Of a stretch of DNA of 33,672 nt, positions 3,219 to 28,594 are shown in pieces. Origin of the DNA: an uncultured Candidatus Saccharibacteria bacterium (GTDB taxonomy: Bacteria > Patescibacteriota > UBA1384 > XYA2-FULL-43-10 > CAINNR01); the NCBI GenBank assembly GCA_964355425.1, contig CAYHDN010000001.1, positions 1 to 33,672 on the forward strand. The letters run 5' to 3'. The translations under genes and the position numbers were made by a program. The notes beneath the pieces were generated by a model. It was not told where the DNA came from. It searched no databases and was given only the letters and a program-made list of their open reading frames with translations. Positions within the stretch are counted from its first letter, which is position 1; the number at the start of each line of letters is the position of its first letter.

Positions 3219-3269
3219 TGGGTAAAAGGTCAAGAAGCTGGTTAGGGCAAAGAAGTAAGAAGTCTGAAA

Positions 3270-3297
3270 AAGAAAAACCCGACTTTGTGGGTCGGGG
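3270..3297 (-). terminator. intrinsic terminator of the H-X9-DG pseudopilin gene
   Basis: CCCGAC(3278-3283)/GTCGGG(3291-3296) stem, followed on the minus strand by TTTTTCT. Confidence 0.6.
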
Positions 3298-3312
3298 GGA
3301 GTCGTTGTATTG

Positions 3313-4041
3313 CTAGCGGGGCGGGAGGCTGAAGACCTCTTTGGTCTCGGGGTCAATGTAGGTGCCATCCGGTTGGGGGATCAACTTGCGAACGGTCGGC
3401 TTTTCCACTGGTTGCCCGGAAAGCGAAATGTGGTAGTCGCCCTCTTTCAGCTCGGTAACGAAAGTTGCTCCGATACGCCACTTGACGTGGCCATCAAGGA
3501 AGAGGATGTTCAACCCGTCGTTGTGGCGGTCAGCCATGTTGACATAGATACCCTGGTTCTTGATGTCGATCGTTGCCACCAACCAGATGCCGTCATTACC
3601 GGAATACTCGATAACCGCGGGGAAGTTGCCGTTACCGCTTTGTAGGAGTAACTGACCGAATGCTTCGTCCCGGATAGCATAGGAAGTTGCTTTGGCTGTG
3701 TTCGGACCGACGCAACCCTGTTTCGAATTCCATCTTCGGTCGCTGGGGCAGGCAAACGAGATCGAGTTGGGAACATCGCCTCGCTCGCAGAGCATTGTCC
3801 AGACAGCCGGTGTCCGAGTACCCTCTTGTCCTGGGGTGACAATTGGCAGTAGTGGCATCGCACCGTCGAAGTCGGCGGCGTAACTGGCCAGCCCACGCCC
3901 GATTAGGTTGAGATTCGAGTGGCACTGGGATTGCCTCGCCTTCTCGCGCGCCTTGGCGAAAACCGGGAAGAGAATTGCTGCCAGGATGGCGATAATCGCT
4001 ACCACCACCAGCAGCTCTATAAGCGTAAAACCACGTCTCAT
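3313..4041 (-). CDS. prepilin-type N-terminal cleavage/methylation domain protein with C-terminal H-X9-DG motif (DUF1559-like pseudopilin)
   Basis: The N-terminus [37 protein letters not shown] is a classic type IV prepilin leader plus hydrophobic helix. The C-terminal [13 protein letters not shown] fits H-X9-DG exactly. ATG 4041 has GAGGAGG 8 nt upstream; the longer ORF-track start at 4089 lacks an SD. The gene is GC-rich. Confidence 0.85.
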
Positions 4042-4087
4042 GGTAGACGCCTCCTCGGGGATTGCAGAAGTTGTTTTGCTCGATCTC

Positions 4088-4115
4088 AATATAGCAGTGT
4101 TTTGGGAAAAGTCAA
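4088..4115 (-). promoter_or_regulatory. sigma70-like promoter of the pseudopilin gene
   Basis: TTGACT(4115-4110)-16 nt-TATATT(4093-4088). Confidence 0.5.
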
Positions 4116-4330
4116 TACCTGTTTGGAAATTTTTGCTCTTGACCCGCGCACCAGTCCACCAAGGCGTACGGTGCGGGGTTGACTTTTTTTGGCGATTTTA
4201 ATAAGATGAAGATGGCAGCACGGTTCCCCCTTCCGGGCTGCCACTTGTTTACAAATTTGGGGACGGAGGGCGAGAGCCCTTTTTGTGTTTAGGAATGGAT
4301 GACCTGCCTGCCGGCAGGCAGGCGAATTCT

Positions 4331-4433
4331 GTAGACCAGACTTTAGTCTGAAATTCCCACACTAAAGTGTGGACTACTGTTGAGTTAATGTAGACCACGA
4401 TTCATCGTGCTAACAAGCTAAAGCTTGAACTAC
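4331..4433 (+). repeat. multi-hairpin interspersed repeat R1, copy A (about 103 bp)
   Basis: Four short hairpins: CAGACTTTAGTCTG, CCACACTAAAGTGTGG, CACGATTCATCGTG, AAGCTAAAGCTT. About 85% identical by eye to 13311-13412, in the same orientation. Confidence 0.8.
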
Positions 4434-4453
4434 AAAATCTGATAAAGCTGAGC

Positions 4454-4482: not shown

Positions 4483-4546
4483 GATTTTGCTCTTTAATAA
4501 ATGAATATTTGTAAAAATCTCGAAACGTTTCTCAAAGGAGACTGTC

Positions 4547-4804
4547 ATGGCGACGAAGCCCAAGATGGTAAGAGTAGAGATTGACCTGCCTGGACAAGGA
4601 GAGGAGGCTCATGAATTCGGCTACTGCCCGATGTCGCATCATGGCACGCATCTTCCAGACGGCGGCGGATGGTCCTGTCCGATCAGGGGCGGGGCGTGCC
4701 GATTCGGGCTCACGGAGACCGAGCCGCCTCAGGCTTGTCCGATGAGATCGGGATCGGGCACAATGGTGGTCACGATGAAGTTCAGCCTTGTGCCCAAAAA
4801 GTAA
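4547..4804 (+). CDS. hypothetical Cys-rich small protein (85 aa)
   Basis: It has its own TTGACA-17-TACAAT promoter, AAGGAG 6 nt before the ATG, and terminator 4813-4842. Four Cys residues, three in CP dipeptides (YCPM, SCPI, ACPM). GC-rich; no family recognised. Confidence 0.5.
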   Translation: MATKPKMVRVEIDLPGQGEEAHEFGYCPMSHHGTHLPDGGGWSCPIRGGACRFGLTETEPPQACPMRSGSGTMVVTMKFSLVPKK

Positions 4805-4812
4805 AGGCTATC

Positions 4813-4842
4813 CGGGGGAGGAAATCCACCTCCCCGATTTTT
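4813..4842 (+). terminator. intrinsic terminator of the Cys-rich ORF
   Basis: CGGGGGAGG/CCTCCCCG hairpin followed by ATTTTT. Confidence 0.65.
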
Positions 4843-4894
4843 ACAAGTATTTATTGATATGAATGTTATCAGTTATAATTTTTTGGAGGTAAAA

Positions 4895-5170
4895 ATGTTT
4901 AAACCACTGGGAGATAGAGTCCTGATCAAGCCGCTGGAGGCACAGGAAGTGACAAAATCGGGAATTATTATTCCTGACAGCGCCAAAGAAGAGAGAAGCG
5001 AAGGCAAAGTTATTGCTACAGGTTCCGGCATTGTCAAAGGCAAGAAGTACGAATTTTCAGTCAAAGTCGGGGACAAAGTTTTGTATGGGAAATACTCCGG
5101 CGAAGAAGTTAAAATTGATGGCAAGGAATTTAAAATCGTTAAAGAGGAAGATATTTTGGGGGTGTTATAA
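4895..5170 (+). CDS. groS: co-chaperonin GroES
   Basis: MFKPLGDRVLIKPLEAQEVTKSGIIIPDSAKE... is canonical Cpn10. GGAGG lies 5 nt upstream of ATG 4895; the ORF-track start at 4859 is an upstream extension. The gene is immediately upstream of groEL. Confidence 0.95.
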   Translation: MFKPLGDRVLIKPLEAQEVTKSGIIIPDSAKEERSEGKVIATGSGIVKGKKYEFSVKVGDKVLYGKYSGEEVKIDGKEFKIVKEEDILGVL

Positions 5171-5272
5171 GGAAGTAAAAACTTCCACAGATATATCATC
5201 ACAGATTTACACAGATTCGATTTATTAGTGCTTATCAGTGAAATATTATCCGTGAGAGTCTATGTTCATTAA

Positions 5273-6907
<1,635 letters not shown>

Positions 6908-6975
6908 TTTGCGAAGCAAATTACTAGTTTGTAAAGTACAAAGTTCATCAAGTTCATCAAGTGTATCGAATCAAA

Positions 6976-7011
6976 AAATCCCCAAAGAAGAAATTCAGAG
7001 GGGATTTTTTT
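6976..7011 (+). terminator. intrinsic terminator of groES-groEL
   Basis: AAATCCCC...GGGGATTT hairpin followed by a T-run extending to 7011. Confidence 0.65.
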
Positions 7012-7014
7012 GAT

Positions 7015-7042
7015 AAAAAAGCCCGAAACGCTTGGTTTCGGG
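7015..7042 (-). terminator. intrinsic terminator of the 266-aa zinc-ribbon ORF
   Basis: CCCGAAAC(7022-7029)/GTTTCGGG(7035-7042) stem, followed on the minus strand by T6. Confidence 0.65.
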
Positions 7043-7056
7043 TAAGTTCTCGAGCG

Positions 7057-7857
7057 TTAACCGCCGCAATACGGGCAGTTCTCCTCGTCGTAAATTCTGG
7101 CACAACGATCACAGAGCTTCTCGCCTGGCTTTATCCATGCCAGAACATGAAGGCCTTCGCTGCTTCGTCGGATTGTACCGACTCGGCGGTCAGGAGCGAA
7201 CTGGTCGGCAACGATGCAGTGCTGTGATTCGACACCCTCGACACCATCCATCCGCCGATAGAGGATTTCGGTATCATGGATCAGATCCCAGCGAACTTTC
7301 TCCAGCTCGATTAGATACTGCTGGCGCTCATTGATCAGATTTCCCAGACGAGCGATGAAGTCGTGCGCCAGCGCCATGCTGTCGAGATAGTCTTGGACAA
7401 AATCCTCGACCCTTACGTCGTCGATCCGGATTTCAGTTGGCAGCTGGATGCCGGCACAGTCTATACTCTTTGCGGTGACGACGACCCAGCGCTTTTTCGC
7501 TGTTAGCCCGACCATCTGATAACTGGTCGGTGGCGCTGATTCCTGATTCCAGCCAAACTCCGGCTGGAAGATGCCGAAGAGTTGAAGCGCCCGCGGGTCG
7601 AGTCCCTGTTCGCCATTCACAGTCACTGTGAACTCCCACAGCGGGTCAGATTCCATCGCCTCTTTAATCGTCATCCCAGCCCACTTTCCTTGATTTTCAC
7701 GGAAGACCCGTTGGCCGAGGCACTTGACGTCATGAATCAGATTGTCGAGTTTCACTCTCTCAAACAGGTGTCCGATCCGTTGTGGCCACTCGTTGAACCA
7801 GCCGATCATTTCTCCGCGCGACACCGGCTGATACGTCGTTGCATTTGGCGAGGGCAT
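7057..7857 (-). CDS. hypothetical protein with C-terminal zinc-ribbon-like CxxC...CxxC (266 aa)
   Basis: ATG 7857 is preceded by AGGAGGTGGAGGGA. The C-terminus is KLCDRCARIYDEENCPYCGG. GC-rich and Arg-rich, flanked by terminator 7015-7042. No family recognised. Confidence 0.55.
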   Translation of the reverse strand: MPSPNATTYQPVSRGEMIGWFNEWPQRIGHLFERVKLDNLIHDVKCLGQRVFRENQGKWAGMTIKEAMESDPLWEFTVTVNGEQGLDPRALQLFGIFQPEFGWNQESAPPTSYQMVGLTAKKRWVVVTAKSIDCAGIQLPTEIRIDDVRVEDFVQDYLDSMALAHDFIARLGNLINERQQYLIELEKVRWDLIHDTEILYRRMDGVEGVESQHCIVADQFAPDRRVGTIRRSSEGLHVLAWIKPGEKLCDRCARIYDEENCPYCGG

Positions 7858-7944
7858 TCCCTCCACCTCCTAAAGGTTTCTTTAGGGCATTCCCCTTGGT
7901 GGCAAAACAATAGCAAAAATCCCCAAATAGTTCAAGGGATTTTT

Positions 7945-7973
7945 TTGCTGATTTTATTTTTTTGTGCTATATA
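7945..7973 (+). promoter_or_regulatory. sigma70-like promoter (extended -10) of the 93-aa ORF
   Basis: TTGCTG-17 nt-TATATA preceded by TGc. Confidence 0.45.
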
Positions 7974-8004
7974 TTATTTAGCACTGTATCCAGGGAGGCA
8001 GAGC

Positions 8005-8286
8005 ATGCCCAGGAAAAGGGAATACGAGTTGTATCACCATGGGGGCTACAAGATCAGGCTGGTGGCCGGGTCTGATGTGAGGGTGAGCGTCGTCGAGGTC
8101 AAGAAGGGCGTTATCGAGGTCGCACAGGGTCGGGCTTTCATTCAGAAGGGCGACCCGCCGAGGGGGCTGACCGGATATGTCAGCATCCCAGGCCAACCGG
8201 AGCAATCATTTGGTCTGCTACGCGGGCAGTTCGAGTCGGTCTCCGACCTCGGTGGCAACATTCTCTGGCCGAAGCCAGAGCAGTAG
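8005..8286 (+). CDS. hypothetical protein (93 aa)
   Basis: ATG 8005 has GGGAGG 6 nt upstream, a TTGCTG-17-TATATA promoter (TGc extended -10) and terminator 8312-8347. The longer ORF-track version (from 7582) runs antisense through the neighbouring gene and is rejected. Confidence 0.45.
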   Translation: MPRKREYELYHHGGYKIRLVAGSDVRVSVVEVKKGVIEVAQGRAFIQKGDPPRGLTGYVSIPGQPEQSFGLLRGQFESVSDLGGNILWPKPEQ

Positions 8287-8311
8287 GGAACAAAATGAGG
8301 AGGGGCGAGTA

Positions 8312-8347
8312 CGGCGGAAGTCCAGAGGATTTCCGCCGCTTTTATTT
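8312..8347 (+). terminator. intrinsic terminator of the 93-aa ORF
   Basis: CGGCGGAA/TTCCGCCG 8-bp stem followed by CTTTTATTT. Confidence 0.7.
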
Positions 8348-8405
8348 AAAAAATTCATAGTACTTTATGAACTTTAAAAACTTTATAGACTTTAAGAACT
8401 ATTTT

Positions 8406-8924
8406 TTAAGCCAATTTGGCATGGGCTCCAGCCGGGATTGGCTCCGGTTTGACCATCTCGAAATTATCCTTAACGGTTATTTTATGCTGTTCGATTTTTA
8501 CGATTGCCGAAGTGTGGATTATCCGCTGGTCGAATAATTTTTTAATGTAGATCCTGATTATCGAAAGTGAAGAGTTTTCGATGACATAATCGGAAACCAC
8601 CCCCAAATATTCGCCCTTTTTTGTAAAAACTTTCTCGCCAAAAATCTTCGCCCGTTTTTTGTATTTTTTCTGCAATCGAATCATTTCAGACGGTGCTACC
8701 AAACTTTCCTCACTTTGAATGATTAAGGCAGTTTTTGACAGTTCAACAATTTCTTTAGTTGAGATAAACTTAAGGTGATGAAAAACCCCTTTTGCTTTGG
8801 CAATCACCGCTTCGATCTTGCCTTCATCTTCATCAACAAAAAAATCAGCAAGTTCGGCGACATGCGTTTGATTTTCAATCTCAAAGATTGGAAGTCCTGA
8901 TAGCTTCGACCGTTCAATCAACAT
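8406..8924 (-). CDS. PRC-barrel domain-like protein (two repeats), hypothetical
   Basis: 172 aa with a repeated pattern resembling PRC-barrel/YlmC-type domains (LSGLPIFEIENQTHVAELADFFVDEDEGKIEAV...; FTKKGEYLGVVSDYVIENSSLSIIRIYI). Backbone-like composition. The family assignment is from memory only. Confidence 0.5.
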   Translation of the reverse strand: MLIERSKLSGLPIFEIENQTHVAELADFFVDEDEGKIEAVIAKAKGVFHHLKFISTKEIVELSKTALIIQSEESLVAPSEMIRLQKKYKKRAKIFGEKVFTKKGEYLGVVSDYVIENSSLSIIRIYIKKLFDQRIIHTSAIVKIEQHKITVKDNFEMVKPEPIPAGAHAKLA

Positions 8925-9050
8925 AGATCCATTATAACAAAAATTTTCAATTTAAAATTTTCAATTTTCAATAAATTTTCAAATGATTCAATGATTTAAA
9001 CATTAAAACATTTTAAATTCATTTTAAATTTTAAATTTAGAATTTTAAAT
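8925..9050. repeat. AT-only word spacer (AATTTTCAA / TTTAAATT family)
   Basis: Tandem and interspersed AATTTTCAA, TTTTAAATT and TTTAGAATTTTAAATTT words. This block is related to the spacer at 25210-25278. Confidence 0.7.
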
Positions 9051-9611
9051 TTAGTTGGCTCTTTCTAGATATTCACCGGTTCTGGTGTCGAGGACGATAT
9101 CGTCGCCTTCTTTGATAAACATCGGGACAGCGATCTGTTTGCCGGTGTTGATTGTTACCATTTTTGTCACCGCGCCGGCGCTATTTCCTTTGACACCCGG
9201 AGGAGCTGAAACAACTTTAAAAGTCATTTTGATCGGAAGTTCAATATCTAGTGGTTTGTTCTGGAAACTTAAAATTTCAACTGGAGAATTTTCGGTTAGA
9301 TATTCTAAACTGCTGTCGAGGTGAGAGTTTTCTATTTCGAACTGCTCATAAGAAACATTATCCATGAAATGAGAACTTTGATCGTCATGATAAAGAAAGG
9401 TCGCCGTTTTTTTTTCCAGTTCCGCTGGTTCAAATTTTTCCGAACCCTGGAAAGTTCGGGAAGTTATCGCACCGGAAATCAAATTTTTAAGCTTTGTCCG
9501 CATAATTGCCCCGCCGCGACCCTGTTTTGAGTGTTGCGAAAAAGTAACGGCGTGGGGACTGCCGTCAATAATAATTTTGCTCCCAACTTTTAGATCGGTA
9601 ATAGAATACAT
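9051..9611 (-). CDS. efp: translation elongation factor P
   Basis: MYSITDLKVGSKIIIDGSPHAVTFSQHSKQGRGGAIMRTKLKNLISG... and a full-length 186-aa three-domain EF-P pattern. Confidence 0.95.
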   Translation of the reverse strand: MYSITDLKVGSKIIIDGSPHAVTFSQHSKQGRGGAIMRTKLKNLISGAITSRTFQGSEKFEPAELEKKTATFLYHDDQSSHFMDNVSYEQFEIENSHLDSSLEYLTENSPVEILSFQNKPLDIELPIKMTFKVVSAPPGVKGNSAGAVTKMVTINTGKQIAVPMFIKEGDDIVLDTRTGEYLERAN

Positions 9612-9723
9612 AGTTGAAAGTTTATAAAGTCCATCAAGTCTATAAAGTTCTAAGAGCTGGAATCTATTATAGTTATTCCTTGTACTTTACGGACTTTAGA
9701 CTTTTTACTTTACGAACTAGTTA
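9612..9723. repeat. AAGT(C/T)NATAAAGT / ACTTTA word spacer
   Basis: Contains TTTATAAAGTCCATCAAGTCTATAAAGTTC ... GTACTTTACGGACTTTAGACTTTTTACTTTACGAAC. The same word family occurs at 6941-6963, 8351-8405, 10550-10602 and 22455-22492. Confidence 0.7.
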
Positions 9724-11595: not shown

Positions 11596-12039
11596 ATGCC
11601 CAGAAAGAAGAGAATTGATGTTTTCAGAGTAACTGCATGGCATCCGGTTGCCGGAAATCTCGAGACCAACGCTGTTGAGTGGCTGAAGGGTGACGAGCGC
11701 TACTATCTTTACCCGATTTATGTCTGTGGCCGCGGACGGCTGAATATGACTCGGTATTTTCTTGACATTCGGCCGGGGATCCGCGACGTTGATCGAGTAA
11801 TCATTTACCACCGTCCTGGTAACGCTTGGTTGATACGATTGTCACTCAACTTGCCTGACACCGTGGAGAATTTCGCCGAGGGTGTTAAGATGGCGTCAAC
11901 CACCTTGTTGGGGAAGTTACAGCTGGCAACAATCAACTGCTTTAACGACAATGTTGTCTACATCGTTGCCAGCCGCCTGCCTGAACCGCCAATGGGTTCC
12001 CGGGTGTTTCGGGCCAGCGCCTTGCCGGTGCCAGCCTAG
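11596..12039 (+). CDS. hypothetical protein (147 aa)
   Basis: ATG 11596 has GAGGTGGTGA upstream, and terminator 12045-12070 follows. GC/Arg-rich. The ORF-track start at 11482 is an upstream extension without an SD. No family recognised. Confidence 0.5.
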   Translation: MPRKKRIDVFRVTAWHPVAGNLETNAVEWLKGDERYYLYPIYVCGRGRLNMTRYFLDIRPGIRDVDRVIIYHRPGNAWLIRLSLNLPDTVENFAEGVKMASTTLLGKLQLATINCFNDNVVYIVASRLPEPPMGSRVFRASALPVPA

Positions 12040-12044
12040 GTTTT

Positions 12045-12070
12045 GCGCTCCGATTTTGGGGCGCTTTTTT
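12045..12070 (+). terminator. intrinsic terminator of the 147-aa ORF
   Basis: GCGCTCC/GGGGCGC stem (one G-U pair) followed by T6. Confidence 0.7.
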
Positions 12071-12078
12071 AATTTAAT

Positions 12079-12117
12079 AAAAAAATCCGCCTCGCCCCCG
12101 GAGGAGCAAAGGCGGCG
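12079..12117 (-). terminator. intrinsic terminator of plsX-like gene
   Basis: On the minus strand CCGCCTTTGCTCCTCCGGGGGCGAGGCGG forms a hairpin, followed by ATTTTTTT. Confidence 0.65.
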
Positions 12118-12131
12118 GTTGCGAAATTGTA

Positions 12132-13199
12132 CTATTGGTTGAAATGCTCACGGATTTTACCGACCAGATCCAGCTCAATGTAGCGTAGTGTGGCCTCGAT
12201 TCCGTTGGCGATGGCATAGCGGTCGGAGCTGCCGTGGCCGATCATCACAAGGCCATTGGTGCCGAGAAGGGGCATTGCGCCGAACTGTCGGGGATCAAGC
12301 TCGAGCTTTACTGCTTTGAGTGCCGGCTTGATCATCCATAGTCCGATTTTGGTCCGCCAGCTCTTCAGTCCGTTGCGGAGAAGTGACTCCAAGGTGAGCT
12401 TTACGCCGCCCTCAACCCCTTTGAAGAACGCATTACCTACGAAGCCGTCGGACGCGTCAACATCCACAGCCTTATAGTCCGGATTGCCGAGCAATTCCCT
12501 GACCCTCTCTTGCGCGATCTCTGCTGCGACCAGGTCGCTAGACTGGACGTTGCCGACGAAGTTCGGAAAGCGCTCTTCCTCGAGTAGGCGGAAAGCCTCC
12601 TTACTGGCCTTGTTGCCCTTACTATCCTCCTCACCATTGGAGTGCAAACCAACGAGGGGATCTTCGATGTCGAGAGCCAGCTGACCAAAGATCCGCCCAA
12701 GATGAGCGAATTGCACGATCATCTCGGCGCTGCAGTCCGTGCTGGTGCCGCCGTCGAGAAGAATGCCACGACGGCCGCCATACTTGGGCATAGTCAGCGC
12801 TAACGGCGGACGCAAGATGCCTGGGATAAGTCCCAGTCCACCTTTTTCAGTATCACGAGCAGCCCAGACCGTCGCGGACCTGGTGTCTCCACAGAGTAAA
12901 GCAGCGTCGGCTTCACCTGCTGCTACCAGCCTAACCGATTGAGCAACAGAGGAATTGGTGGCCCGCAAGACGGTCTTTAGGTCGTCGCTGGCCCAAAGAG
13001 TTTCGTCACAGGGGAAACGGGCATCAACTGACACCAGCCCAAATTGGTTCACAAGCGAGTTAATTAGGCTCTGATGACCAACAACGGCTACGCGATAAGG
13101 GTTGTCTTTTCTCATTCGTCTGATTGCGATCCTGACCCCTTCTGCCACTTCCTCGGGCCCTTTATCGGTTCCCAAGAGATCAACGGCCACGGTTGGCAT
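12132..13199 (-). CDS. plsX: PlsX-like phosphate acyltransferase (fatty acid/phospholipid synthesis protein PlsX family)
   Basis: Colinear by eye with PlsX: VAVDLLGTDKGPEEV (cf. DVMGGD), RPPLALTMPKYGGRRGILLDGGTSTDCSAEMIVQFAHLG, SDGFVGNAFFKGVEG, LLGTNGLVMIGHGSSD. It has its own TTGACG-17-TATTAT promoter, a GAGGAGG SD and terminator 12079-12117. GC-rich. Confidence 0.8.
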   Translation of the reverse strand: MPTVAVDLLGTDKGPEEVAEGVRIAIRRMRKDNPYRVAVVGHQSLINSLVNQFGLVSVDARFPCDETLWASDDLKTVLRATNSSVAQSVRLVAAGEADAALLCGDTRSATVWAARDTEKGGLGLIPGILRPPLALTMPKYGGRRGILLDGGTSTDCSAEMIVQFAHLGRIFGQLALDIEDPLVGLHSNGEEDSKGNKASKEAFRLLEEERFPNFVGNVQSSDLVAAEIAQERVRELLGNPDYKAVDVDASDGFVGNAFFKGVEGGVKLTLESLLRNGLKSWRTKIGLWMIKPALKAVKLELDPRQFGAMPLLGTNGLVMIGHGSSDRYAIANGIEATLRYIELDLVGKIREHFNQ

Positions 13200-13273: not shown

Positions 13274-13310
13274 TGTGAGATGAACGAGCTCAAAAACTCC
13301 ATCGATTATC

Positions 13311-13412
13311 GTAGATCAGACTTTAGTCTGAAATATCCACACTGAAGTGTGGCTACAAATGAATTGATGTAGACCACGATTTATCGTGATAACAAACTAA
13401 AGCTTGTACTGC
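13311..13412 (+). repeat. multi-hairpin interspersed repeat R1, copy B
   Basis: GTAGATCAGACTTTAGTCTGAAATATCCACACTGAAGTGTGG...GTAGACCACGATTTATCGTG...AAGCTTGTAC, lying immediately 3' of the ychF stop codon. Confidence 0.8.
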
Positions 13413-13415
13413 TGA

Positions 13416-14474
13416 CTATACATTGAAGCGGAATAATGCCACATCGCCGTCTTTGAAAATATAATTTTTACCCTCTGTCCGGACCATTCCGTGTGAGCGG
13501 GCGCCAGACCAACCGCCCTGGGCGAAAAGGTCTTGCCAGGGAATTACTTCAGCGGCGATAAATCCGCGTTCGAAATCGCTGTGAATTACGGCAGCGGCTT
13601 CCGGCGCCATTGTGCCGTTTCGAACTGTCCAAGCCCGAGTTTCCGGCTCGCCGGAGGTAAAATAGGTGATTAAATTCAGTGCCCTGTAGGCCTCTTTTAT
13701 CAAACGATTGATGCCGGTATCGCTAATACCAAGAGACTCGAGGTATTCATGTCGGTCAGCATCCGACAAGTCATTTAGCTCTGATTCTATCTTAGCGGAA
13801 ATTGGAATATATTTATCATCTTCGAAACTCCGCAGTTGTTCCTCGGAACAATTAGCGACATATAAGACTGGTTTCATCGTCATCAGCGCCAGTGATTTAA
13901 CCAGTTTTAATTCATCATCAGACAAATCGGCTTCGCGGGCATTTTTGCCATCACAAAGTTTTTTTATAATTTTGTCCAGTGCTTCTTTTTCTAATTTTGC
14001 ATCCTTTGATCCGCTTTTGATGTCACGGTCTAAATTATATTGGCGTTTTTCGACTGTGGTAATATCGGCAAGCTGAAGTTCGGTTTCAATAGTAGCGATA
14101 TCATCTTTCGGATCCAGTTTTCCGGCAACATGAGTTACATTTTCATCTTGAAAAAAACGGACGACCATAGCAATCGCATCACATTCGCGGATGTGCGAAA
14201 GAAATTGGTTGCCTAAGCCTTCGCCTTTTGATGCACCGCGGACTAGGCCGGCAATATCAACAAACTCAACGACGGTGGGTACAATCTTTTTAGAATGAGA
14301 GATTTCGCCGAGCGGAGCGAGGCGTTCATCCGGCACCTCAACAATTCCAACATTGGGCTCAATGGTGCAAAATGGGTAGTTGGCCGCTTCCGCTTTTGAG
14401 CCCTTAACTAAGGCATTAAAAAGTGTACTCTTTCCAACATTCGGTAAACCTACGATGCCGATTTTGAGCGACAT
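13416..14474 (-). CDS. ychF: ribosome-binding ATPase YchF (Obg-like GTPase family)
   Basis: MSLKIGIVGLPNVGKSTLFNAL...NYPFCTIEPNVGIVEVPD...C-terminal TGS-like GKNYIFKDGDVALFRFNV. Start set at ATG 14474, because the 60 codons upstream in the ORF track cross a terminator and a palindromic repeat. Confidence 0.93.
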   Translation of the reverse strand: MSLKIGIVGLPNVGKSTLFNALVKGSKAEAANYPFCTIEPNVGIVEVPDERLAPLGEISHSKKIVPTVVEFVDIAGLVRGASKGEGLGNQFLSHIRECDAIAMVVRFFQDENVTHVAGKLDPKDDIATIETELQLADITTVEKRQYNLDRDIKSGSKDAKLEKEALDKIIKKLCDGKNAREADLSDDELKLVKSLALMTMKPVLYVANCSEEQLRSFEDDKYIPISAKIESELNDLSDADRHEYLESLGISDTGINRLIKEAYRALNLITYFTSGEPETRAWTVRNGTMAPEAAAVIHSDFERGFIAAEVIPWQDLFAQGGWSGARSHGMVRTEGKNYIFKDGDVALFRFNV

Positions 14475-14540
14475 AAATCCTTTCAAAAAGTGCTCATCCT
14501 CCGTAGCTTTAGCGAAGGATGGGTTAAGTCCCATAGCTAG

Positions 14541-14569
14541 AACATACGCTATTTGAGCTTGTAAGTAAA
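14541..14569 (-). promoter_or_regulatory. possible promoter of ychF (backbone gene)
   Basis: TTTACT-17 nt-TATGTT on the minus strand, directly abutting the T-tract of the upstream cassette terminator. Confidence 0.35.
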
Positions 14570-14594
14570 GAAAAAACTCTCGTGTACACGAGAG
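14569..14594 (-). terminator. intrinsic terminator of the 87-aa membrane ORF
   Basis: Perfect palindrome CTCTCGTGTACACGAGAG (14577-14594), followed on the minus strand by TTTTTTC. Confidence 0.65.
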
Positions 14595-14613
14595 CCGGGC
14601 AGGGTAGCGATTG

Positions 14614-14877
14614 CTACTCCGTGATGATGCCGAGGCGCCGGCCACCGGCGTCAATGCCGCCGATGAGCAGCAAGATCAGCGGCCAGCAGAGGGCAACGGC
14701 CGGGAAGCAGGTGAAATACAGCCACAGGTCTCGGGCGTTTGGCTGTTCGCCGACCGCACCGAACGAGCCATTAGCCCAGCTGAGCTCGCCCGCGAGCACC
14801 ATCCAGACGACGATCGCAATGACCAGATACACGCCCAGTCCTTCTGCCACTTTCAGCAGGGTCAGCAGTGTTCTCAT
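14614..14877 (-). CDS. hypothetical small membrane protein (87 aa, 2 predicted TM)
   Basis: ATG 14877 is preceded by GAAGGG. Product is MRTLLTLLKVAEGLGVYLVIAIVVWMVLAG...FTCFPAVALCWPLILLLIGGI. Terminator 14569-14594 follows. GC-rich. Confidence 0.45.
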   Translation of the reverse strand: MRTLLTLLKVAEGLGVYLVIAIVVWMVLAGELSWANGSFGAVGEQPNARDLWLYFTCFPAVALCWPLILLLIGGIDAGGRRLGIITE

Positions 14878-14928
14878 TTGGCACCCTTCTGTGCTACCTG
14901 ATTTTGTTTGATGATATATCATTTCAAT

Positions 14929-14956
14929 TTGAAAGTAAAGAGATTTTTGTTATATT
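14929..14956 (+). promoter_or_regulatory. sigma70-like promoter of the basic-peptide ORF
   Basis: TTGAAA-16 nt-TATATT. It lies in a palindromic divergent region; TTTCAATTTGAAA is self-complementary. Confidence 0.45.
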
Positions 14957-14985
14957 ATATCCGACCATGTCCGGAGGTGTTCGCG

Positions 14986-15138
14986 GTGCCAAGGCACAGC
15001 GGTAGTAGTAATGATAAGGCACAGAGGAAGCGCCGAACGAAAAGGGGTAGACTAGAGCGTGCAAACTTCAGCAGAGGAAAGCTGGCCAGGCGCAACATAG
15101 AGAATGCTTATCGCCGAGAGTCGTCCCATGGTAGCTGA
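14986..15138 (+). CDS. hypothetical highly basic peptide (50 aa)
   Basis: GTG 14986 directly follows the leader GGAGGTGTTCGCG. Product is VPRHSGSSNDKAQRKRRTKRGRLERANFSRGKLARRNIENAYRRESSHGS. A TTGAAA-16-TATATT promoter lies upstream, and the stop codon sits in the loop of terminator 15125-15156. Coding status is uncertain. Confidence 0.3.
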   Translation: MPRHSGSSNDKAQRKRRTKRGRLERANFSRGKLARRNIENAYRRESSHGS

Positions 15139-17953: not shown

Positions 17954-17996
17954 TTTATGCATCTGTTAGTTGTTCACATTCAGGAGGTGTTCGCGC

Positions 17997-18515
17997 ATGC
18001 GGACCTTAGTTGCCGTGGCTCTGATTTGTCTGTGTCTTACGCCGGCGTTCTGCCAAGACAAACCGGCGCCGCCGGTCTGTCCCCCGGAGCAGACCGCGAC
18101 GGCCAGCCAGTACGATGTCAATGTCGGCGTCAGCGACCAGACCTTCCAAGCGATGACCAAGTCGGTCGACGCCATGGCAGGCCTGATCAGCAGGTATGTC
18201 TCGGGCCCGCTGGCGGTCTATTACGCCAGTATGGTGAAGCGCCAAGCTGCTCTTGGCTGGACAGGCGTCGGTTTCTGTGGAGTGTCGCTGATCTTTCTCT
18301 GCGTCTGCATCGGCCTAATCCGGCTGACTTGCGGCGCTGATGGAAACACGGAGCCCGGCGTATTGGGCGTCTTCTGGATCATCATGGGGGTCGTCAGTCT
18401 GATCTGTTTCCTGATCGCTCTCGGCTACCTGCCGGTGTCAATTTCGCGCATTGCTGCGCCGGAGTCCTTCGCCATCCAGGACATCATCAAGTCGTTGGGG
18501 GCGATGAAACCGTAG
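17997..18515 (+). CDS. hypothetical secreted/membrane protein (172 aa; signal-peptide-like N-terminus, 2 C-terminal TM)
   Basis: ATG 17997 follows the leader GGAGGTGTTCGCG. Product starts MRTLVAVALICLCLTPAFCQD. Promoter is TTTACA-16-TGcTATAAT, and terminator 18550-18580 follows. GC-rich. Confidence 0.5.
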   Translation: MRTLVAVALICLCLTPAFCQDKPAPPVCPPEQTATASQYDVNVGVSDQTFQAMTKSVDAMAGLISRYVSGPLAVYYASMVKRQAALGWTGVGFCGVSLIFLCVCIGLIRLTCGADGNTEPGVLGVFWIIMGVVSLICFLIALGYLPVSISRIAAPESFAIQDIIKSLGAMKP

Positions 18516-18549
18516 CTGCCCAGCTAGGCTCCATCGCCAGGCTGCATAG

Positions 18550-18580
18550 CCCGGACCACTATTGGCCCGGGACTTTTTTT
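18550..18580 (+). terminator. intrinsic terminator of the 172-aa membrane ORF
   Basis: CCCGGACC/GGCCCGGG imperfect stem followed by ACTTTTTTT. Confidence 0.6.
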
Positions 18581-18705
18581 GTCCCCAAAAAAGGTTTATG
18601 ATTAGAATAAATAAATGTCGTCTCCAGTTTAATTGGGGATTTGCAACGCTAATAGTAGATTCCCGACTTCTCGGGAATGACAAAAAGAATTAACAGGAGG
18701 GAATT

Positions 18706-20534: not shown

Positions 20535-20557
20535 AGTAACCAAGAGAGGTGATACCA

Positions 20558-20761
20558 GTGACAGACGTCAGTCAGATAAAGCGACGCGCACTTGAGCTTG
20601 CACGCGAGGGTGTTCACGAGGTGCTTGCTGGTGGCAGGAGGAAAAGCGGTCAGCCAAGCGTCGGTGTCCGGAGGCTGATGGCTCCGTGTGCCGGCTTTGC
20701 CCCGAACATCTCACCTTCGGTCTATCGAAGCCGTCCTAAATCCAGTCAGCACAACGGCTGA
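20558..20761 (+). CDS. hypothetical small protein (67 aa)
   Basis: GTG 20558 has GAGAGGTGA upstream (ORF-track start 20549 sits inside the SD). Promoter is TTGCAA-16-TGaTATTCT, and a weak hairpin plus T8 terminator lies at 20775-20798. GC/Arg-rich. Confidence 0.35.
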   Translation: MTDVSQIKRRALELAREGVHEVLAGGRRKSGQPSVGVRRLMAPCAGFAPNISPSVYRSRPKSSQHNG

Positions 20762-20800
20762 CTCCGAGCCGTACCCGCTGTCACTGGCGGTTTTTTTTGT

Positions 20801-20829
20801 AAAAAAATGACGGTTCAGGTCGAACCGTC
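20801..20829 (-). terminator. intrinsic terminator of the 190-aa ORF
   Basis: GACGGTTC/GAACCGTC 8-bp stem, followed on the minus strand by ATTTTTTT. It lies back-to-back with the weaker plus-strand hairpin plus T8 at 20775-20798. Confidence 0.7.
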
Positions 20830-21401
20830 TAAGTGATGTCGACGGAGACAAAGAAATGGAATGTGATCAAACAGTTACCTCCCAGATTGTTACGCTGGCC
20901 GATGATCATTTGCATGTGATACCAGCGACCGTTGCTACTGACCTCTGCCAGACCTGAGTGGCGCGACCACTCCTTGCCACACCATTCTGCTCGGTGCTTG
21001 GTTTTGGCGCAGGCGACCACATCATGGATGGTTCTTAGCACTTCGTGCCCGTTGGCAGCTTGGAGTTCCTCTTGTGTCCAGCCTATTTCTCGTTGTTTAT
21101 AGACTGGCCAAAGAACGGATCCTAAGCCCCGGGGGTCTATTCTGTGCTGGATCGCTTCTATGTCTCGGCCGCTAGGTCGGACAATCGCTTCAATGGTGCA
21201 TGGGGTATCAACAGCACCAAGCAACGACTCGAAGGCTAACCGCCCGATTGGGCTCACGGGGCCGAATCTCTGAGTTGCCTCTTGCTTACGTGACCGCAGG
21301 TGTCCGTCTAGCGACTCTATTGGCCGGAACTTCGGCAAGTCAGGCTGCGCTGTTATGCGCGCCCAAATTGCTTTGAGGAAACATCCCGCGCGCTTAAACA
21401 T
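20829..21401 (-). CDS. hypothetical protein (190 aa)
   Basis: ATG 21401 has AAGGGGG upstream, and terminator 20801-20829 follows. GC/Arg-rich. No family recognised. Confidence 0.5.
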   Translation of the reverse strand: MFKRAGCFLKAIWARITAQPDLPKFRPIESLDGHLRSRKQEATQRFGPVSPIGRLAFESLLGAVDTPCTIEAIVRPSGRDIEAIQHRIDPRGLGSVLWPVYKQREIGWTQEELQAANGHEVLRTIHDVVACAKTKHRAEWCGKEWSRHSGLAEVSSNGRWYHMQMIIGQRNNLGGNCLITFHFFVSVDIT

Positions 21402-21506
21402 CGGCCTGACCCCCTTTGCTTTTGGGTTCGACTTATGTTATCACAATAATAAAATTGGAACAATAAAATAGCAGTAGTGGTCTTAAAAAGGTGTTATTAT
21501 AAGCCT

Positions 21507-22494: not shown

Positions 22495-23775
22495 ATGAAA
22501 AATATTTTAGCCAAAGCGGAAAGATTAGGATGCATTATCCCACACAAAAAGTGGAGTGATATTGATCGTCAGCTCAAGCCGGTTTTACGGAAGATGGAAA
22601 AAACCGGCATTAAATTAGACGTCGCTAGTTTAGGTAAGCTATCCAAAAGGTTAACAACAAAGGCCAATAAACTAGAATCTGAAATTCAAAAATTGGCTGG
22701 CAAAAAGTTTAATGTTTCATCACCATCGCAACTAGCGGATATTTTGTTCAAGAAATTAAAATTACCTGTAGATGATATTAAACGTAATAAATCCGGAATT
22801 TCAACCGGAGCTTCGGAACTTTTAAAACTGCGTAAAGAACACAAAATAGTTGATAAAATTCTTGAATACCGCGAACTTTCAAAACTGCTTTCGACCTATC
22901 TGGCGCCACTGCCGAAATTGGTTGACAAAAACTCGCGCCTGCACACTCATTTTGGCGAAGATACGCGGACGGGACGGCTTAATTCATCAAACCCTAATCT
23001 GCAAAATATTCCGATTCGCGGAGAATTTGGGCCAGAAATTCGCAAAGCTTTTATCGCCGAGAAAGGCAATAAATTGATCTCTGCCGATTATTCTCAAATT
23101 GAGCTTCGTGTTGTTGCTTGCCTGGCGCAGGATAAAGTGATGTTGAAAGCCTTTCACGACGGCATTGATATCCATGCCAAAACCGCTTCGGAAATTTTTG
23201 ACACTCCGGTCGGAAAAATTACTCACGATCAGCGGCGGGTGGCAAAAACAGTCAATTTTGGTGTTTTGTATGGCATTAGCCCCTACGGCCTGTCGCAAAC
23301 ACTCGGAATAAAACAGGAAGAAGCGGCAAAATATATTATGCAGTATTTCAAAATCCACTACGGCATTAAGAAATATTGTGAAGATCAAATTGCGCTAGCA
23401 AAAAAACACGGCTATGTTGAAACCTTATTTGGCTTTCGGCGGGAACTGCCAGATATTAAGTCGGAAAACCGTAATATTTATGAAGCAGCCCAGCGGATGG
23501 CAATTAATACTCCTGTTCAGGGAACTGCGGCAGAGGTTTTGAAACTGGCGATGATTGAATTACATAAAAAGTTATCAAAGAAATCGGCCAACTTAATTCT
23601 GACGGTCCACGATGAATTGGTTGTAGAGGTTCCGGAGAAAGAGGCGATTGCCACAGCTAAACTTATGAGAGATATTATGGAGGGGGAAGTAAAGTTGTCG
23701 GTTCCTGTTGAAGTTGAGGTTGGTATCGGCAATAATTGGGACGAAGCAAAACATAATATTGTCAAAAAAAAGTGA
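22495..23775 (+). CDS. polA: DNA polymerase I polymerase (family A palm/fingers/thumb) domain as a separate ORF; no 3'-5' exonuclease domain
   Basis: Family A motifs LISADYSQIELRVVA, RRVAKTVNFGVLYGISPYGL and LTVHDELVVEV. The ORF begins at the start of the polymerase domain (VLRKMEKTGIKLD). Confidence 0.9.
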   Translation: MKNILAKAERLGCIIPHKKWSDIDRQLKPVLRKMEKTGIKLDVASLGKLSKRLTTKANKLESEIQKLAGKKFNVSSPSQLADILFKKLKLPVDDIKRNKSGISTGASELLKLRKEHKIVDKILEYRELSKLLSTYLAPLPKLVDKNSRLHTHFGEDTRTGRLNSSNPNLQNIPIRGEFGPEIRKAFIAEKGNKLISADYSQIELRVVACLAQDKVMLKAFHDGIDIHAKTASEIFDTPVGKITHDQRRVAKTVNFGVLYGISPYGLSQTLGIKQEEAAKYIMQYFKIHYGIKKYCEDQIALAKKHGYVETLFGFRRELPDIKSENRNIYEAAQRMAINTPVQGTAAEVLKLAMIELHKKLSKKSANLILTVHDELVVEVPEKEAIATAKLMRDIMEGEVKLSVPVEVEVGIGNNWDEAKHNIVKKK

Positions 23776-23789
23776 CCCCCTGGGGGGTC
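23764..23789 (-). terminator. intrinsic terminator of the 124-aa ORF, overlapping the polA stop codon
   Basis: GACCCC/GGGGTC stem. Its minus-strand T8 tract is the complement of the AAAAAAAA that encodes the last Lys codons of polA. Confidence 0.65.
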
Positions 23790-23823
23790 GTCGGTCGTGA
23801 GGTTCGTGAGCCGCGAGTGGCGG

Positions 23824-24198
23824 CTAGAAGTCGTCGAGGTCAGACAATGGCCGGCACAGCCGCTGGATGTCGCGCATCGGGTCGGAACCGTAGCGCTGGC
23901 GGGAGATCGCAAGTCCGACAGTCATCACGTCAGCTTCGCTGATCGCCCTGAGGGCGAAGTCGAGGTTCTGTTCGTGGGTCCGGCGATGGTGATCAAGCCA
24001 CGCCGTCAGCACGCCGATGGACAGGATACCATCAATGACTCGTGGATCGCCGAGAAACTCGTTGGGGACCCGGACAAACAGCAGTGGGTTGTGTGTGATG
24101 AGCGGGTGGCTCATCAAGCTCTCTCGGACAGAGGGATCAGGAATCGGTCCGTGGAGCATTGACCGGACAACCTGTTCAGCTGGAACTATCTGTATCAT
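23824..24198 (-). CDS. hypothetical protein (124 aa)
   Basis: ATG 24198 has GGAGG 6 nt upstream, with promoter TTGAAT-17-TAAATT and terminator 23764-23789. GC/Arg-rich. The ORF-track start at 24255 is an unsupported extension. Confidence 0.5.
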   Translation of the reverse strand: MIQIVPAEQVVRSMLHGPIPDPSVRESLMSHPLITHNPLLFVRVPNEFLGDPRVIDGILSIGVLTAWLDHHRRTHEQNLDFALRAISEADVMTVGLAISRQRYGSDPMRDIQRLCRPLSDLDDF

Positions 24199-27965: not shown

Positions 27966-28089
27966 TGTACTTCCGTTTAATGATTTTACTATAAGAGTGT
28001 AGCAGAAGTTTTTAGATTTGTGAAGTGCTTGTACGGAATCCCGCACCTCCAGCTCTTTTCTGGGAAAGGGCTGGATGGTGCGTGGATAA

Positions 28090-28113
28090 AGAAAAACCTC
28101 CCGGATGGGGAGG
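28090..28113 (-). terminator. intrinsic terminator of the 152-aa membrane ORF
   Basis: CCTCCC/GGGAGG stem, followed on the minus strand by TTTTTC. Confidence 0.6.
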
Positions 28114-28135
28114 AATGATCAGTTGTTTTTGGCGA

Positions 28136-28594
28136 TCAGCCGTGTCTACCGCCGCCGAATTTGTCAATTAGACGTGGATTGCTCGCACGTGCAGCATCCT
28201 CGTCCGGGCAACCCAGTGACATGTCAGCCTTCGGACAATCGCTTGGGACTTGGTTTTCCGCTGGCCAGATGAGGGAACCGGCAATCATACCGATGAACAT
28301 AGCGATGGAAATGGCGTAAAGGTGAAACATCGACGGGACTAGGCTGACCACGAAACCGATTAGCCAAAGAATCCCGTTGCACAGAACATCGGTGAAACTG
28401 CTGAAGGTCAAGGGATCTTCGACGGTTTTCCTCTGGCCCAGTAGCCACTTGCCGAGGAAATACGCTCCAAGTCCGAACGACAGCGAACACACATAAAAGA
28501 CTCGGCCGATGTCGCTGTGGAGAATCAGACCGGTGACCGAACCGATCAGGCCGGCCACCAAAGCGGAAAAAACCAAAACTCGCAGGAATCTCAT
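28136..28594 (-). CDS. hypothetical integral membrane protein (152 aa, about 4 TM)
   Basis: ATG 28594 has GAGG upstream, with promoter TTGACT-17-TTAAAT and terminator 28090-28113. GC-rich. No family recognised. Confidence 0.5.
   Translation of the reverse strand: MRFLRVLVFSALVAGLIGSVTGLILHSDIGRVFYVCSLSFGLGAYFLGKWLLGQRKTVEDPLTFSSFTDVLCNGILWLIGFVVSLVPSMFHLYAISIAMFIGMIAGSLIWPAENQVPSDCPKADMSLGCPDEDAARASNPRLIDKFGGGRHG

Follow-up and report, generated by a model that had tools for sequence, protein, structure and literature searches.

The only well-known class of mobile DNA that targets terminator stem-loops is that of the group IIC introns, which insert after intrinsic terminators (PMC1702495). 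A different precedent for gene gain is one-sided homologous recombination combined with illegitimate joining on the other side, an established route of integration in competent bacteria (PMC3240628). Both were used as points of reference for the locus described here, which lies between groEL and a PRC-barrel gene. A sequence-only reading of the window (the whole stretch of 33,672 nt analyzed here) had described two terminator-like elements bracketing the gene for a 266-aa protein, ORF266, and had suggested that the pair was left by a terminator-directed integration of cassettes. The two elements are present, within 2-3 nt of the positions claimed. The features of the locus are as follows; both promoters are predictions made from the sequence.

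5285-6907, plus strand: groEL (Cpn60), which anchors the hot spot on the left (match to Pfam Cpn60_TCP1 at E = 3e-75 if the in-frame TAG codon at 6110-6112 is read through)
6904-6966, plus strand: groEL 3'UTR, with a small hairpin at 6904-6924 followed by short AT-rich repeats, AAAGTTCATCAAGT
6973-7012, plus strand: copy 1 (H), putative bidirectional intrinsic terminator hairpin, AAAAAATCCCCAAAGAAGAAATTCAGAGGGGATTTTTTTG (folding; alignment with H of relatives)
7022-7042, minus strand: predicted terminator of ORF266 itself, CCCGAAACCAAGCGTTTCGGG followed by T6 (terminator scan; fold of -11.9 kcal/mol)
7057-7857, minus strand: ORF266, gene for a 266-aa orphan protein (translation; 55% GC)
7858-7906, minus strand: conserved 5'UTR of ORF266, with two hairpins
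7907-7935, minus strand: predicted ORF266 promoter (read from the sequence; conserved hexamers and spacing)
7915-7947, plus strand: copy 2, weaker putative bidirectional hairpin between the back-to-back promoters of ORF266 and ORF93, AAAAATCCCCAAATAGTTCAAGGGATTTTTTTG (folding; alignment)
7945-7973, plus strand: predicted ORF93 promoter (block conserved upstream of ORF93 homologues at five other loci)
8005-8286, plus strand: ORF93, gene for a GC-rich orphan protein, divergent from ORF266 (translation)
8312-8338, plus strand: predicted ORF93 terminator (terminator scan and folding; minus-strand termination predicted to be poor)
8406-8924, minus strand: PRC-barrel gene, which anchors the hot spot on the right (Pfam PRC, E = 6e-12)
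9051-9611, beyond the PRC-barrel gene: efp (EF-P domains, Pfam)

Two similar hairpins on either side of ORF266

Copy 1 lies 66 nt past the groEL stop codon and folds at -17.1 and -16.9 kcal/mol on the two strands (z about -3.7). Copy 2 is weaker, at -11.7 and -13.4 kcal/mol (z of -2.9 and -3.6). An A-run and a T-run flank each of them, giving a hairpin and then a U-run on either strand. Judged by these features, a GC stem-loop with a U-run on both strands, both would qualify as bidirectional intrinsic terminators. As claimed, they share two exact blocks, one of 13 nt, AAAAATCCCCAAA, at 6974-6986 and 7915-7927, and one of 12 nt, GGGATTTTTTTG, at 7001-7012 and 7936-7947. It should be noted that the two blocks are mutually reverse-complementary and so are not independent evidence; since the arms of each hairpin are complements of one another, the information shared amounts to approximately one word of 10-13 nt. 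There is no gene ahead of copy 2 on either strand, in agreement with the earlier remark that it follows no plus-strand gene, and only read-through transcripts would meet it. The locus also occurs in an independent ENA assembly, L071, with 99.96% identity over 4665-9412 and no difference at all in the hairpins, which rules out an assembly artefact. An apparent duplicate of the hairpin at the ends of contigs C5 and C31 was merely the 55-nt overlap of the assembler.

The minus-strand promoter predicted for ORF266 has the form TTGAAC-17-TATTGT, with the -35 hexamer at 7930-7935, inside the copy 2 loop, and the -10 hexamer at 7907-7912; its 17-nt spacer is the left arm of copy 2. The predicted element therefore overlaps the second hairpin, as had been proposed for the promoter of the leftward gene, and its hexamers and spacing are conserved in G005, L066, L063 and L064. 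It agrees with the consensus at only 8 of 12 positions and for this reason is absent from the list of the promoter scanner. On the other strand, the -35 hexamer predicted for ORF93, TTGCTG, is fused to the T-run of copy 2 and is followed after 17 nt by the -10 hexamer TATATA, with TGTG upstream.

The N-terminal domain of the ORF266 protein is weakly NTF2-like, its C-terminal part is a CxxC...CxxC zinc ribbon, and the protein also contains a long helix. Searches for its function gave no match in Pfam, PHROG or PADLOC and no deep homologues; its homologues make up only 4 clusters among 1.84 billion representatives, and a structure model (pLDDT 75) had no significant fold match in the PDB. An exact-match look-up of the PRC-barrel protein returned no record. 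The ORF266 5'UTR is near-invariant across five lineages, though the proteins are only 33% identical. It contains the hairpins GGGG-AAUR-CCCC and GAGGG-AAUG-CCCUC, the second of which runs past 7858 into the first codons and has the start codon in its loop; no covariation was found in these hairpins among the five lineages. The AT-rich tract of the groEL 3'UTR has an inverted counterpart at 8350-8404, past the PRC stop codon (inverted repeat I1, 26 nt, 81%), and similar tracts are found in the 3'UTRs of relatives and at dispersed sites in the order.

The groEL-PRC spacer in related genomes

Synteny of groEL and PRC is kept across the order. The content of the spacer varies in almost every genome: it is empty or holds ORF93, ORF266, an amidohydrolase-like gene, a zinc-finger gene or other ORFs. 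The groEL / PRC-efp spacer is a hot spot of accessory-gene turnover in Candidatus Berkelbacteria. Relatives that lack the gene do not already carry both hairpins, an outcome that would have spoken against an insertion; empty spacers of about 90-150 nt have one hairpin only (G001, L028, L034, L040 and L042-44). Copy 1 aligns with the H hairpin of at least ten relatives (G002, G003, G005, G006, G007, G010, G011, L028, L033 and L034), with which it has in common the stem and a GAGAAATC-type loop; family f1 conserves this groEL terminator, and copy 1 is its orthologue here.

ORF266 is present in a single copy in this genome, with none elsewhere. Its five known homologues, some as little as 33% identical, all lie between PRC and groEL in the same orientation; thus confined, the gene does not behave as a freely integrating cassette. 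In G005, ORF266 stands between two hairpins, H1 and H3, that are identical at 24 of 30 positions, including a 10-nt loop tract, and that are two of only three hairpins of the H stem type in this 900-kb genome.

The distribution of ORF266 could be read with the opposite polarity. The occupied state would then be ancestral, with separate terminators on the groEL and PRC sides, and the empty spacers would be deletions between similar hairpins, so that the pair would be a substrate of deletion rather than the trace of an insertion. Deletion classically acts on direct repeats of 30-40 nt, the junction between copy 1 (H1 in G005) and the ORF266 terminator is common to our genome and G005, and ORF266 occupies the same locus in f1 and in family-f2-like lineages, with a divergence roughly in step with that between the hosts (63% identity within f1 vs 33-34% between families). 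Nevertheless, this order of events is unlikely: it requires at least 5-6 independent losses within f1 and leaves the initial likeness of two separate terminators unexplained. In addition, ORF266 is GC-rich (52-55% across f1 and f2-like lineages) in AT-rich genomes, which would be odd after long vertical residence, and at the f2-like locus L064 the hairpins on either side of the gene are unrelated.

Homologues of ORF93 occupy the same spacer in G007 (47%), G010, G011, L035 and L037, and in all five the ORF93 promoter is directly adjoined by a terminator whose position matches that of copy 2 in the alignment; for L035 this terminator is the groEL hairpin itself. On the other side, the spacer and -35 hexamer of the ORF266 promoter in G005 and L066 are the positional homologues of the copy 2 left arm and loop. 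The A-run, -35 and T-run are present in these orthologous regions and there is no GC stem, so the copy 2 stem could be a gain specific to our genome and not an inherited copy of H. The f2 homologues of ORF266 have different sequences at this position. For a 10-nt patch that differs from G005, conversion of the promoter spacer by copy 1 was considered; the patch lies in an unconstrained spacer and ordinary divergence explains it equally well.

Rarity of the match and origin of the second hairpin

With up to one mismatch, the 13-mer occurs 3 times in the window (2 exact) and the 12-mer 4 times (2 exact), where window shuffles give 0.26 and 0.75, respectively. Neither the 13-mer nor the hairpin pattern A4+TCCC...GGGAT4+ has any further occurrence in the complete 744-kb assembly beyond copies 1 and 2. 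Each relative has 1-4 sites with the same stem, mostly at orthologous or unrelated loci, and H is multiplied in none of the genomes compared. This rules out a common dispersed repeat, the other outcome that would have undone the insertion proposal. In a full-length comparison of 407 hairpins, each copy has the other as its best match, by a margin of only 0.5-1 score unit: copy 1 scores 19 against copy 2, and unrelated terminators of the same pattern (C5:27512 and C36:290) score 18-18.5. When the A and T runs are stripped, the pair scores 9, a value reached by 27 neighboring hairpin pairs vs 18 expected; similarity outside the runs is at background level.

Duplicated terminators also occur at a second hot spot. 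In contig C36, 95% identical hairpins at 290-330 and 745-781 flank a 74-aa zinc-ribbon unit, and in G003 (contig C10) a VapBC-like pair lies between direct repeats of about 86 nt. The loops of these hairpins are alike within each genome and unlike between the genomes, and duplication of the local terminator arose independently at this hot spot. Including the pair at groEL, the direct repeats measure about 33-40 nt, 43 nt (C36) and about 86 nt (G003), so that their length is not fixed. In the window, at least 7 other GC-rich cassettes have no duplicated flanking hairpins, which rules out such duplication as a general signature of these cassettes there. The search for further cassettes with duplicated terminators that had been recommended gave the second hot spot, and no other case among these cassettes of the window. 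A genome-wide scan of neighboring hairpins singled out only C36 and a palindrome pair in C5. No cassette boundary motif, whether a terminator tail or a promoter block, is shared genome-wide; similarities are local to each hot spot.

Copy 2 may have arisen by convergence, that is, it may have evolved in situ as an insulating terminator in the AT-rich region between the back-to-back promoters, with no duplication. It would then resemble copy 1 because both follow a common terminator pattern, A6-TC-C3-4, a loop often with a GAAA tetraloop, and G3-4-GA-T6. Several of the observations above speak for convergence: the score of the stripped pair, the closeness of other terminators of this pattern, and the stemless scaffold in G005 and L066, which the f2 homologues do not share. 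Moreover, the complementary arms reduce the specific shared information to about TCCCC plus AAA, and the ORF93 -35 accounts for the T-run plus TTG in 6/6 loci. On the other hand, the only two such stems in 744 kb are 940 nt apart, where the chance of a same-type neighboring terminator is about 0.01; 15 of 16 positions in the 5' half of copy 2 agree with the H consensus of the family; and gain of a C4/G3 stem goes against the AT-rich composition. The H pair of G005 and the near-identical duplications at the second hot spot indicate that duplication demonstrably occurs in these genomes. We consider convergence a substantial possibility, second to the reading given below.

Approximately 11% of this 744-kb CPR genome consists of patches of 52-60% GC in a backbone of roughly 40% GC. 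In the window, the patches examined each consist of one gene together with a promoter and a terminator of its own, and for most of them comparison with three relatives revealed no syntenic homologue. The genome encodes ComEC and RecA, as well as six Y1_Tnp (RAYT-like) proteins that score above the cut-off and have open frames of 184-266 aa. The hairpins that flank the RAYT genes (GGGGACGGTTCTC, CCACCTACGAGGTGG and GTAG-type REP arrays) are of families other than H, and each of these genes has hairpin families of its own. The REP arrays of the six RAYT-like genes lie near cassette borders.

Could a dedicated mechanism have placed ORF266 where it is? A mobile cassette would in that case integrate into or beside intrinsic terminators and duplicate the target hairpin; a staggered-cut transposase, integron-like hairpin recombination and an HUH/Y1 enzyme acting on single-stranded hairpins are candidates. 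Such a mechanism would fit the duplicated hairpins around units at two hot spots in at least 3 genomes, the one hairpin of the empty sites, and the six Y1_Tnp proteins, as enzymes of this kind recognize DNA hairpins. It would also fit the finding that all insertions in the groEL-PRC spacer start directly after the T-run of H. However, the gap between the hairpin and the PRC stop codon measures only about 16 nt in empty sites, and selection acting in this neutral gap suffices to account for the common insertion point. Searches of the ORF266 unit with Pfam and other profiles found no recombinase or transposase domain, and the unit has no terminal inverted repeats and no attC-type core; no recombinase gene lies near it. 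The window contains no Rfam family at gathering score and no ribozyme. A single-copy empty site exists, as expected for target-site duplication, but the repeats are 33-40 nt with unlike loops. Unlike a transposable element, the unit has no defined ends with a transposase and does not occupy more than one genomic site. Together with the single locus of the ORF266 homologues, the variable repeat length, the other window cassettes that lack duplicates, the different hairpin families of the RAYT genes and the failure of H to multiply in any genome, these results make a dedicated mechanism improbable and leave the terminator-directed integration suggested for the cassettes unsupported. Still less probable is a more specific version, in which bidirectional terminators at a few Berkelbacteria hot spots serve as attachment sites for hairpin-guided, single-strand-based capture of cassettes, possibly catalyzed in trans by the Y1 proteins, which are unusually numerous in this genome, with the hairpin duplicated each time. 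If true, a CPR genome of 0.7 Mb would contain an integron-like system directed by terminators.

The explanation that we prefer, with a probability of about 0.45, is that the hairpins are paralogous insulating terminators produced by ordinary recombination at a hot spot for accessory genes. Copy 1 would be the resident bidirectional terminator, which in the empty relatives would end both groEL and PRC. Copy 2 would act between the back-to-back promoters as a two-way insulator against read-through arriving from either flank, groEL or PRC, while its loop would supply the -35 of ORF266 and its T-run plus TTG the -35 of ORF93. The two copies are, we infer, most likely paralogues: copy 2 would date from the splitting of the shared terminator by accessory DNA. 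This DNA, taken up from relatives, may have been joined homologously on one side and illegitimately on the other ("allele stacking"), a route in keeping with the presence of ComEC and RecA; unequal crossing-over, or slippage at the palindrome, would be alternative ordinary routes. None of this calls for a dedicated terminator-seeking integrase or transposase. We propose that copy 2 was retained because each side needs its own terminator. The direct repeats would favor later deletion, which fits the patchy distribution of ORF266. Of the earlier proposal of an insertion or recombination footprint with duplication of the target, this keeps the part that the empty single-hairpin sites, the G005 pair and the second hot spot support; the stemless orthologues in G005 and L066, the unrelated hairpins around the gene at L064, the background-level score of the stripped pair and the near-equal scores of C5:27512 and C36:290 tell against it.

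If the preferred reading holds, the finding is a modest one: a compact genome insulates its transcription units by duplicating a resident bidirectional terminator when accessory genes land between convergent core genes. The Berkelbacteria offer a tractable case of gene gain and loss in ultra-small symbiotic bacteria without classical mobile elements, because GC-rich single-gene patches, a variable groEL-PRC spacer and six RAYT-like genes with REP arrays occur together.

Comparison with known systems

The hairpins have the GC stem, the A- and T-run flanks and the folding on both strands of the bidirectional rho-independent terminators of convergent genes, and in the empty relatives one hairpin likewise lies between convergent groEL and PRC. 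The difference here is the presence of two copies, the second of which follows no gene and lies insulator-like between divergent promoters. As in integration hot spots ("islets"), conserved core genes flank a variable spacer and the cargo has a deviant GC content. Here, however, the units are tiny, each a single gene that brings a promoter and a terminator of its own; neither an integrase nor a tRNA lies close by, and the resident terminator is sometimes duplicated.

Integron cassettes are likewise bounded by imperfect palindromes (attC), and repeated hairpins with different cargo are seen in C36 and G003. In contrast to integrons, there is no adjacent IntI, the only tyrosine recombinase of the genome (Phage_integrase family) being on contig C39; the hairpins have the form of ordinary terminators with no R''/L''-L'/R' core; and the units carry promoters and terminators and occur in both orientations, whereas integron cassettes are promoterless and in one orientation. 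The group IIC introns differ in that they leave the terminator unduplicated; the locus has no ribozyme or reverse transcriptase, and ORF266 lacks an RT domain. Six Y1_Tnp genes and REP-like arrays recall the REP/RAYT and IS200/IS605 (HUH Y1) systems, and two similar hairpins around a unit resemble a non-autonomous element of this kind. However, the Y1-flanking hairpins are of other families, H is unmultiplied and has no GTAG-type head, and such elements produce no target duplication.

Homology-facilitated illegitimate recombination has, to our knowledge, never been demonstrated in CPR bacteria, and at the locus of copies 1 and 2 no recombination junction could be pinpointed and no junction microhomology assigned. 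Its likeness to what is seen here is that a homologous anchor at one end and an illegitimate join at the other can place the donor and recipient versions of a spacer side by side, and in doing so duplicate the elements that those versions share.

The groEL-PRC interval and its two hairpins

The G000 assembly comprises 744 kb in 60 contigs at 42% GC, the window being contig C1. Two similar hairpins, copy 1 and copy 2, flank ORF266, which encodes an orphan zinc-ribbon protein of 266 aa; ORF93 is a divergent orphan gene.

Features of the locus (window positions)
ends 5170, plus strand, groES
5285-6907, plus strand, groEL, with an in-frame TAG at 6110-6112
6973-7012, hairpin copy 1
7022-7042, minus strand, terminator
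7057-7857, minus strand, ORF266
7915-7947, hairpin copy 2
8005-8286, plus strand, ORF93
8312-8338, plus strand, ORF93 terminator
8406-8924, minus strand, PRC-barrel gene (PRC)
9051-9611, minus strand, efp

GC content is 51-59% over 7000-8350 versus 36-45% in the flanks. An independent ENA assembly of the locus (L071) is 99.96% identical to window 4665-9412, with the hairpins unchanged. The groEL TAG falls at the conserved Lys of AVKAPGFGD and is no one-off assembly error, since L071 reproduces it, its groEL likewise being called as two ORFs (275 and 250 aa). Short tandem or phased AT-rich repeats (for example AAAGTTCATnAAGT and CACAGATnn) fill the stretches from stop codon to terminator (6925-6966, 8345-8404, 5180-5270, 8940-9050 and the groEL 3'UTRs of relatives); the unit varies by genome and the position is constant. 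Throughout the order, tracts of the AAAGTTCAT type have matches at numerous scattered sites.

The exact blocks of 13 and 12 nt that the sequence-only reading saw shared between the copies are present, exceed shuffle expectation, and are reverse complements of each other. Both copies fold on both strands, copy 2 more weakly, and the 13-mer and hairpin pattern occur genome-wide at these two places only. A and T runs are a generic trait of terminators. A genome scan of G000 yielded 407 terminator-like hairpins; with A/T runs stripped, the pair scores 9, a value reached by 27 neighbouring pairs versus 18 expected. Compared at full length, the copies are reciprocal best matches by a margin of just 0.5-1 score unit, the near-equal matches being unrelated terminators (C5:27512, C36:290, C2:23156) with the common pattern A6-TC-C3-4...G3-4-GA-T6. 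On stem identity alone, the chance of a neighbouring terminator of the same type is about 0.01. Judged within G000 only, these sequences are suggestive of homology and not compelling.

The left arm of copy 2 forms the 17-nt spacer of the conserved predicted ORF266 promoter (TTGAAC-17-TATTGT), whose -35 lies in the loop, and the T-run together with TTG supplies the -35 for the predicted ORF93 promoter. At five other loci the ORF93 promoter also abuts the T7-G of a terminator, in L035 that of the groEL hairpin itself; copy 2 thus occupies a position that invariably has a terminator. As a predicted terminator it can block transcripts running in from either side, an important property here, the ORF93 terminator being a poor one on the minus strand. 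Convergence, by which copy 2 would have come to resemble copy 1 without duplication, is a tenable if doubtful explanation. In the relative G005 no GC stem is present at the site orthologous to copy 2. The stem of copy 2 may derive from a duplicated copy 1, with later decay through AT pressure in G005 and in L066, or it may have been gained in place.

Genomes L037 and G007 (L015/L039) have an identical ORF93 promoter and 5'UTR (TTATCCGAG...GGAGGCAGA), preceded by different hairpins and followed by proteins that share just 37% identity across an aligned segment of 60 residues; this contrast suggests that modules were shuffled or that the coding part evolves very fast.

Spacer contents and the ORF266 family

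The groEL-to-PRC order is kept across the order, and the spacer between is hypervariable. Single-copy, cassette-free spacers, which the sequence-only reading had proposed to look for, exist in relatives (G001, L028, L034, L040, L042-44), about 90-150 nt long with one bidirectional hairpin. Elsewhere the spacer carries ORF93 alone (L035), amidohydrolase-like genes (G010, L033, G004), or zinc-finger or other small ORFs (G011, G002, G003, G006, G007, L041). In at least 10 relatives the hairpin next to groEL can be aligned with copy 1 (same stem, GAGAAATC-type loop), which identifies copy 1 as the resident terminator. Cargo always begins directly after the T-run of this hairpin; since only about 16 nt separate hairpin and PRC stop in empty sites, selection alone would place cargo there. 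In the opposite scenario the cargo-bearing spacer would be ancestral and repeat-mediated deletion would have produced the empty sites; this seems very improbable.

Among 1.84 billion representative proteins the ORF266 family makes up only four clusters, and its one named homologue is from Candidatus Berkelbacteria. All contexts found (G000, G005, L063, L064/L065, L071) lie between PRC and groEL in one orientation; the 987-nt contig L066, which reaches neither flanking gene, is outside this tally. The PRC tree places L063 and L064 with family f2, outside the f1 clade containing G000 and G005; identity of their proteins to ORF266 is 33-34%. At every homologue locus the gene is GC-rich (52-55%). 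In L064 its flanking hairpins are unrelated to each other. Given the single locus and orientation and these unrelated hairpins, ORF266 does not behave as a cassette integrating at terminators in general.

The ORF266 5'UTR (7858-7906, minus strand; L003, L063, L064, L066) is near-invariant in five lineages with protein identity of only 33%. Two hairpins of similar appearance make it up, GGGG-AAUR-CCCC and GAGGG-AAUG-CCCUC, and the loop of the second contains the start codon. No covariation was found in these hairpins across the five lineages; the element may be a translational operator.

Duplicated terminators, GC-rich patches and mobility genes

In G005, ORF266 lies between hairpins H1 and H3, identical at 24 of 30 positions including a 10-nt loop tract; they are two of the three hairpins of that stem type in 900 kb. 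On G000 contig C36 a 43-nt hairpin occurs twice (290-330 and 745-781, 95% identity) around a 74-aa zinc-ribbon unit, which is bordered by genes for a small membrane protein and a ferredoxin. At this same hot spot in G003, direct repeats of about 86 nt, one of them spanning a scaffold gap, contain the C36-type hairpin and flank a VapBC-like pair. Because the loops are alike within each genome and differ between the two, these duplications are independent. G005, C36 and G003 are thus evidence that terminators do undergo duplication. Against a general or dedicated mechanism, seven or more further GC-rich units of the window have neither duplicated flanking hairpins nor a syntenic homologue in G005, G001 or G006.

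On contig C5, near-identical palindromes of 34-44 nt (CGAGTGATTTGTAACGATCGTTACAAATCACTCG; 8965-9008 and 9598-9631) flank a 180-aa minus-strand ORF adjoining a GC-rich cassette, and could represent either paired operators or a mobile unit.

About 135 patches of at least 52% GC make up 11% of G000, scattered in a backbone of about 40% GC. Those in the window are mostly single orphan genes, each with its own predicted promoter and terminator; most lack a syntenic homologue in relatives with a collinear backbone.

GC-rich patches in the window
3244-4313 (outside the relatives' stretches compared)
4545-4830 (outside the relatives' stretches compared)
11647-13196
14527-15113
17954-18595
20550-21409
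23715-24187
28057-28595 (exception: 28136-28594 has a 38% homologue in G005)
30060-30938

G000 encodes one tyrosine and one clear serine recombinase, both away from the locus. Its RAYT-like Y1_Tnp (HUH) genes number six and fall into three groups; every one has inverted hairpins of its own on either side (GGGGACGGTTCTC, CCACCTACGAGGTGG or GTAG-type REP arrays), unlike copy 1.

RAYT-like genes (contig:positions)
C60:485-1150
C2:8214-8885
C53:1720-2274
C12:14101-14790
C35:1233-1925
C9:6911-7711

R1, a REP array of four hairpins, is present at 10 places, including window 4321-4440 and 13301-13420; two of the 10 flank the C53 gene. Six of the 10 have a GC-rich island less than 150 nt away, versus a mean of 1.8 under random placement drawing on all DNA, not intergenic DNA only (P = 0.003).

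Origin of the hairpin pair

The sequence-only reading had suggested a terminator-directed integration mechanism. A dedicated system of this kind appears very unlikely: ORF266 is tied to one locus, no recombinase or RNA element was found in its unit, and no boundary motifs shared among cassettes were found genome-wide in G000. The known terminator-seeking elements are group IIC introns (PMC1702495), and nothing of that kind is in the window. The best explanation, to which we give a probability of roughly 0.45, is that the hairpins are paralogous insulating terminators made by ordinary recombination at a hot spot. In favour of this route we count the ComEC and RecA encoded by G000; one-sided homologous plus illegitimate integration is documented for competent bacteria (PMC3240628).
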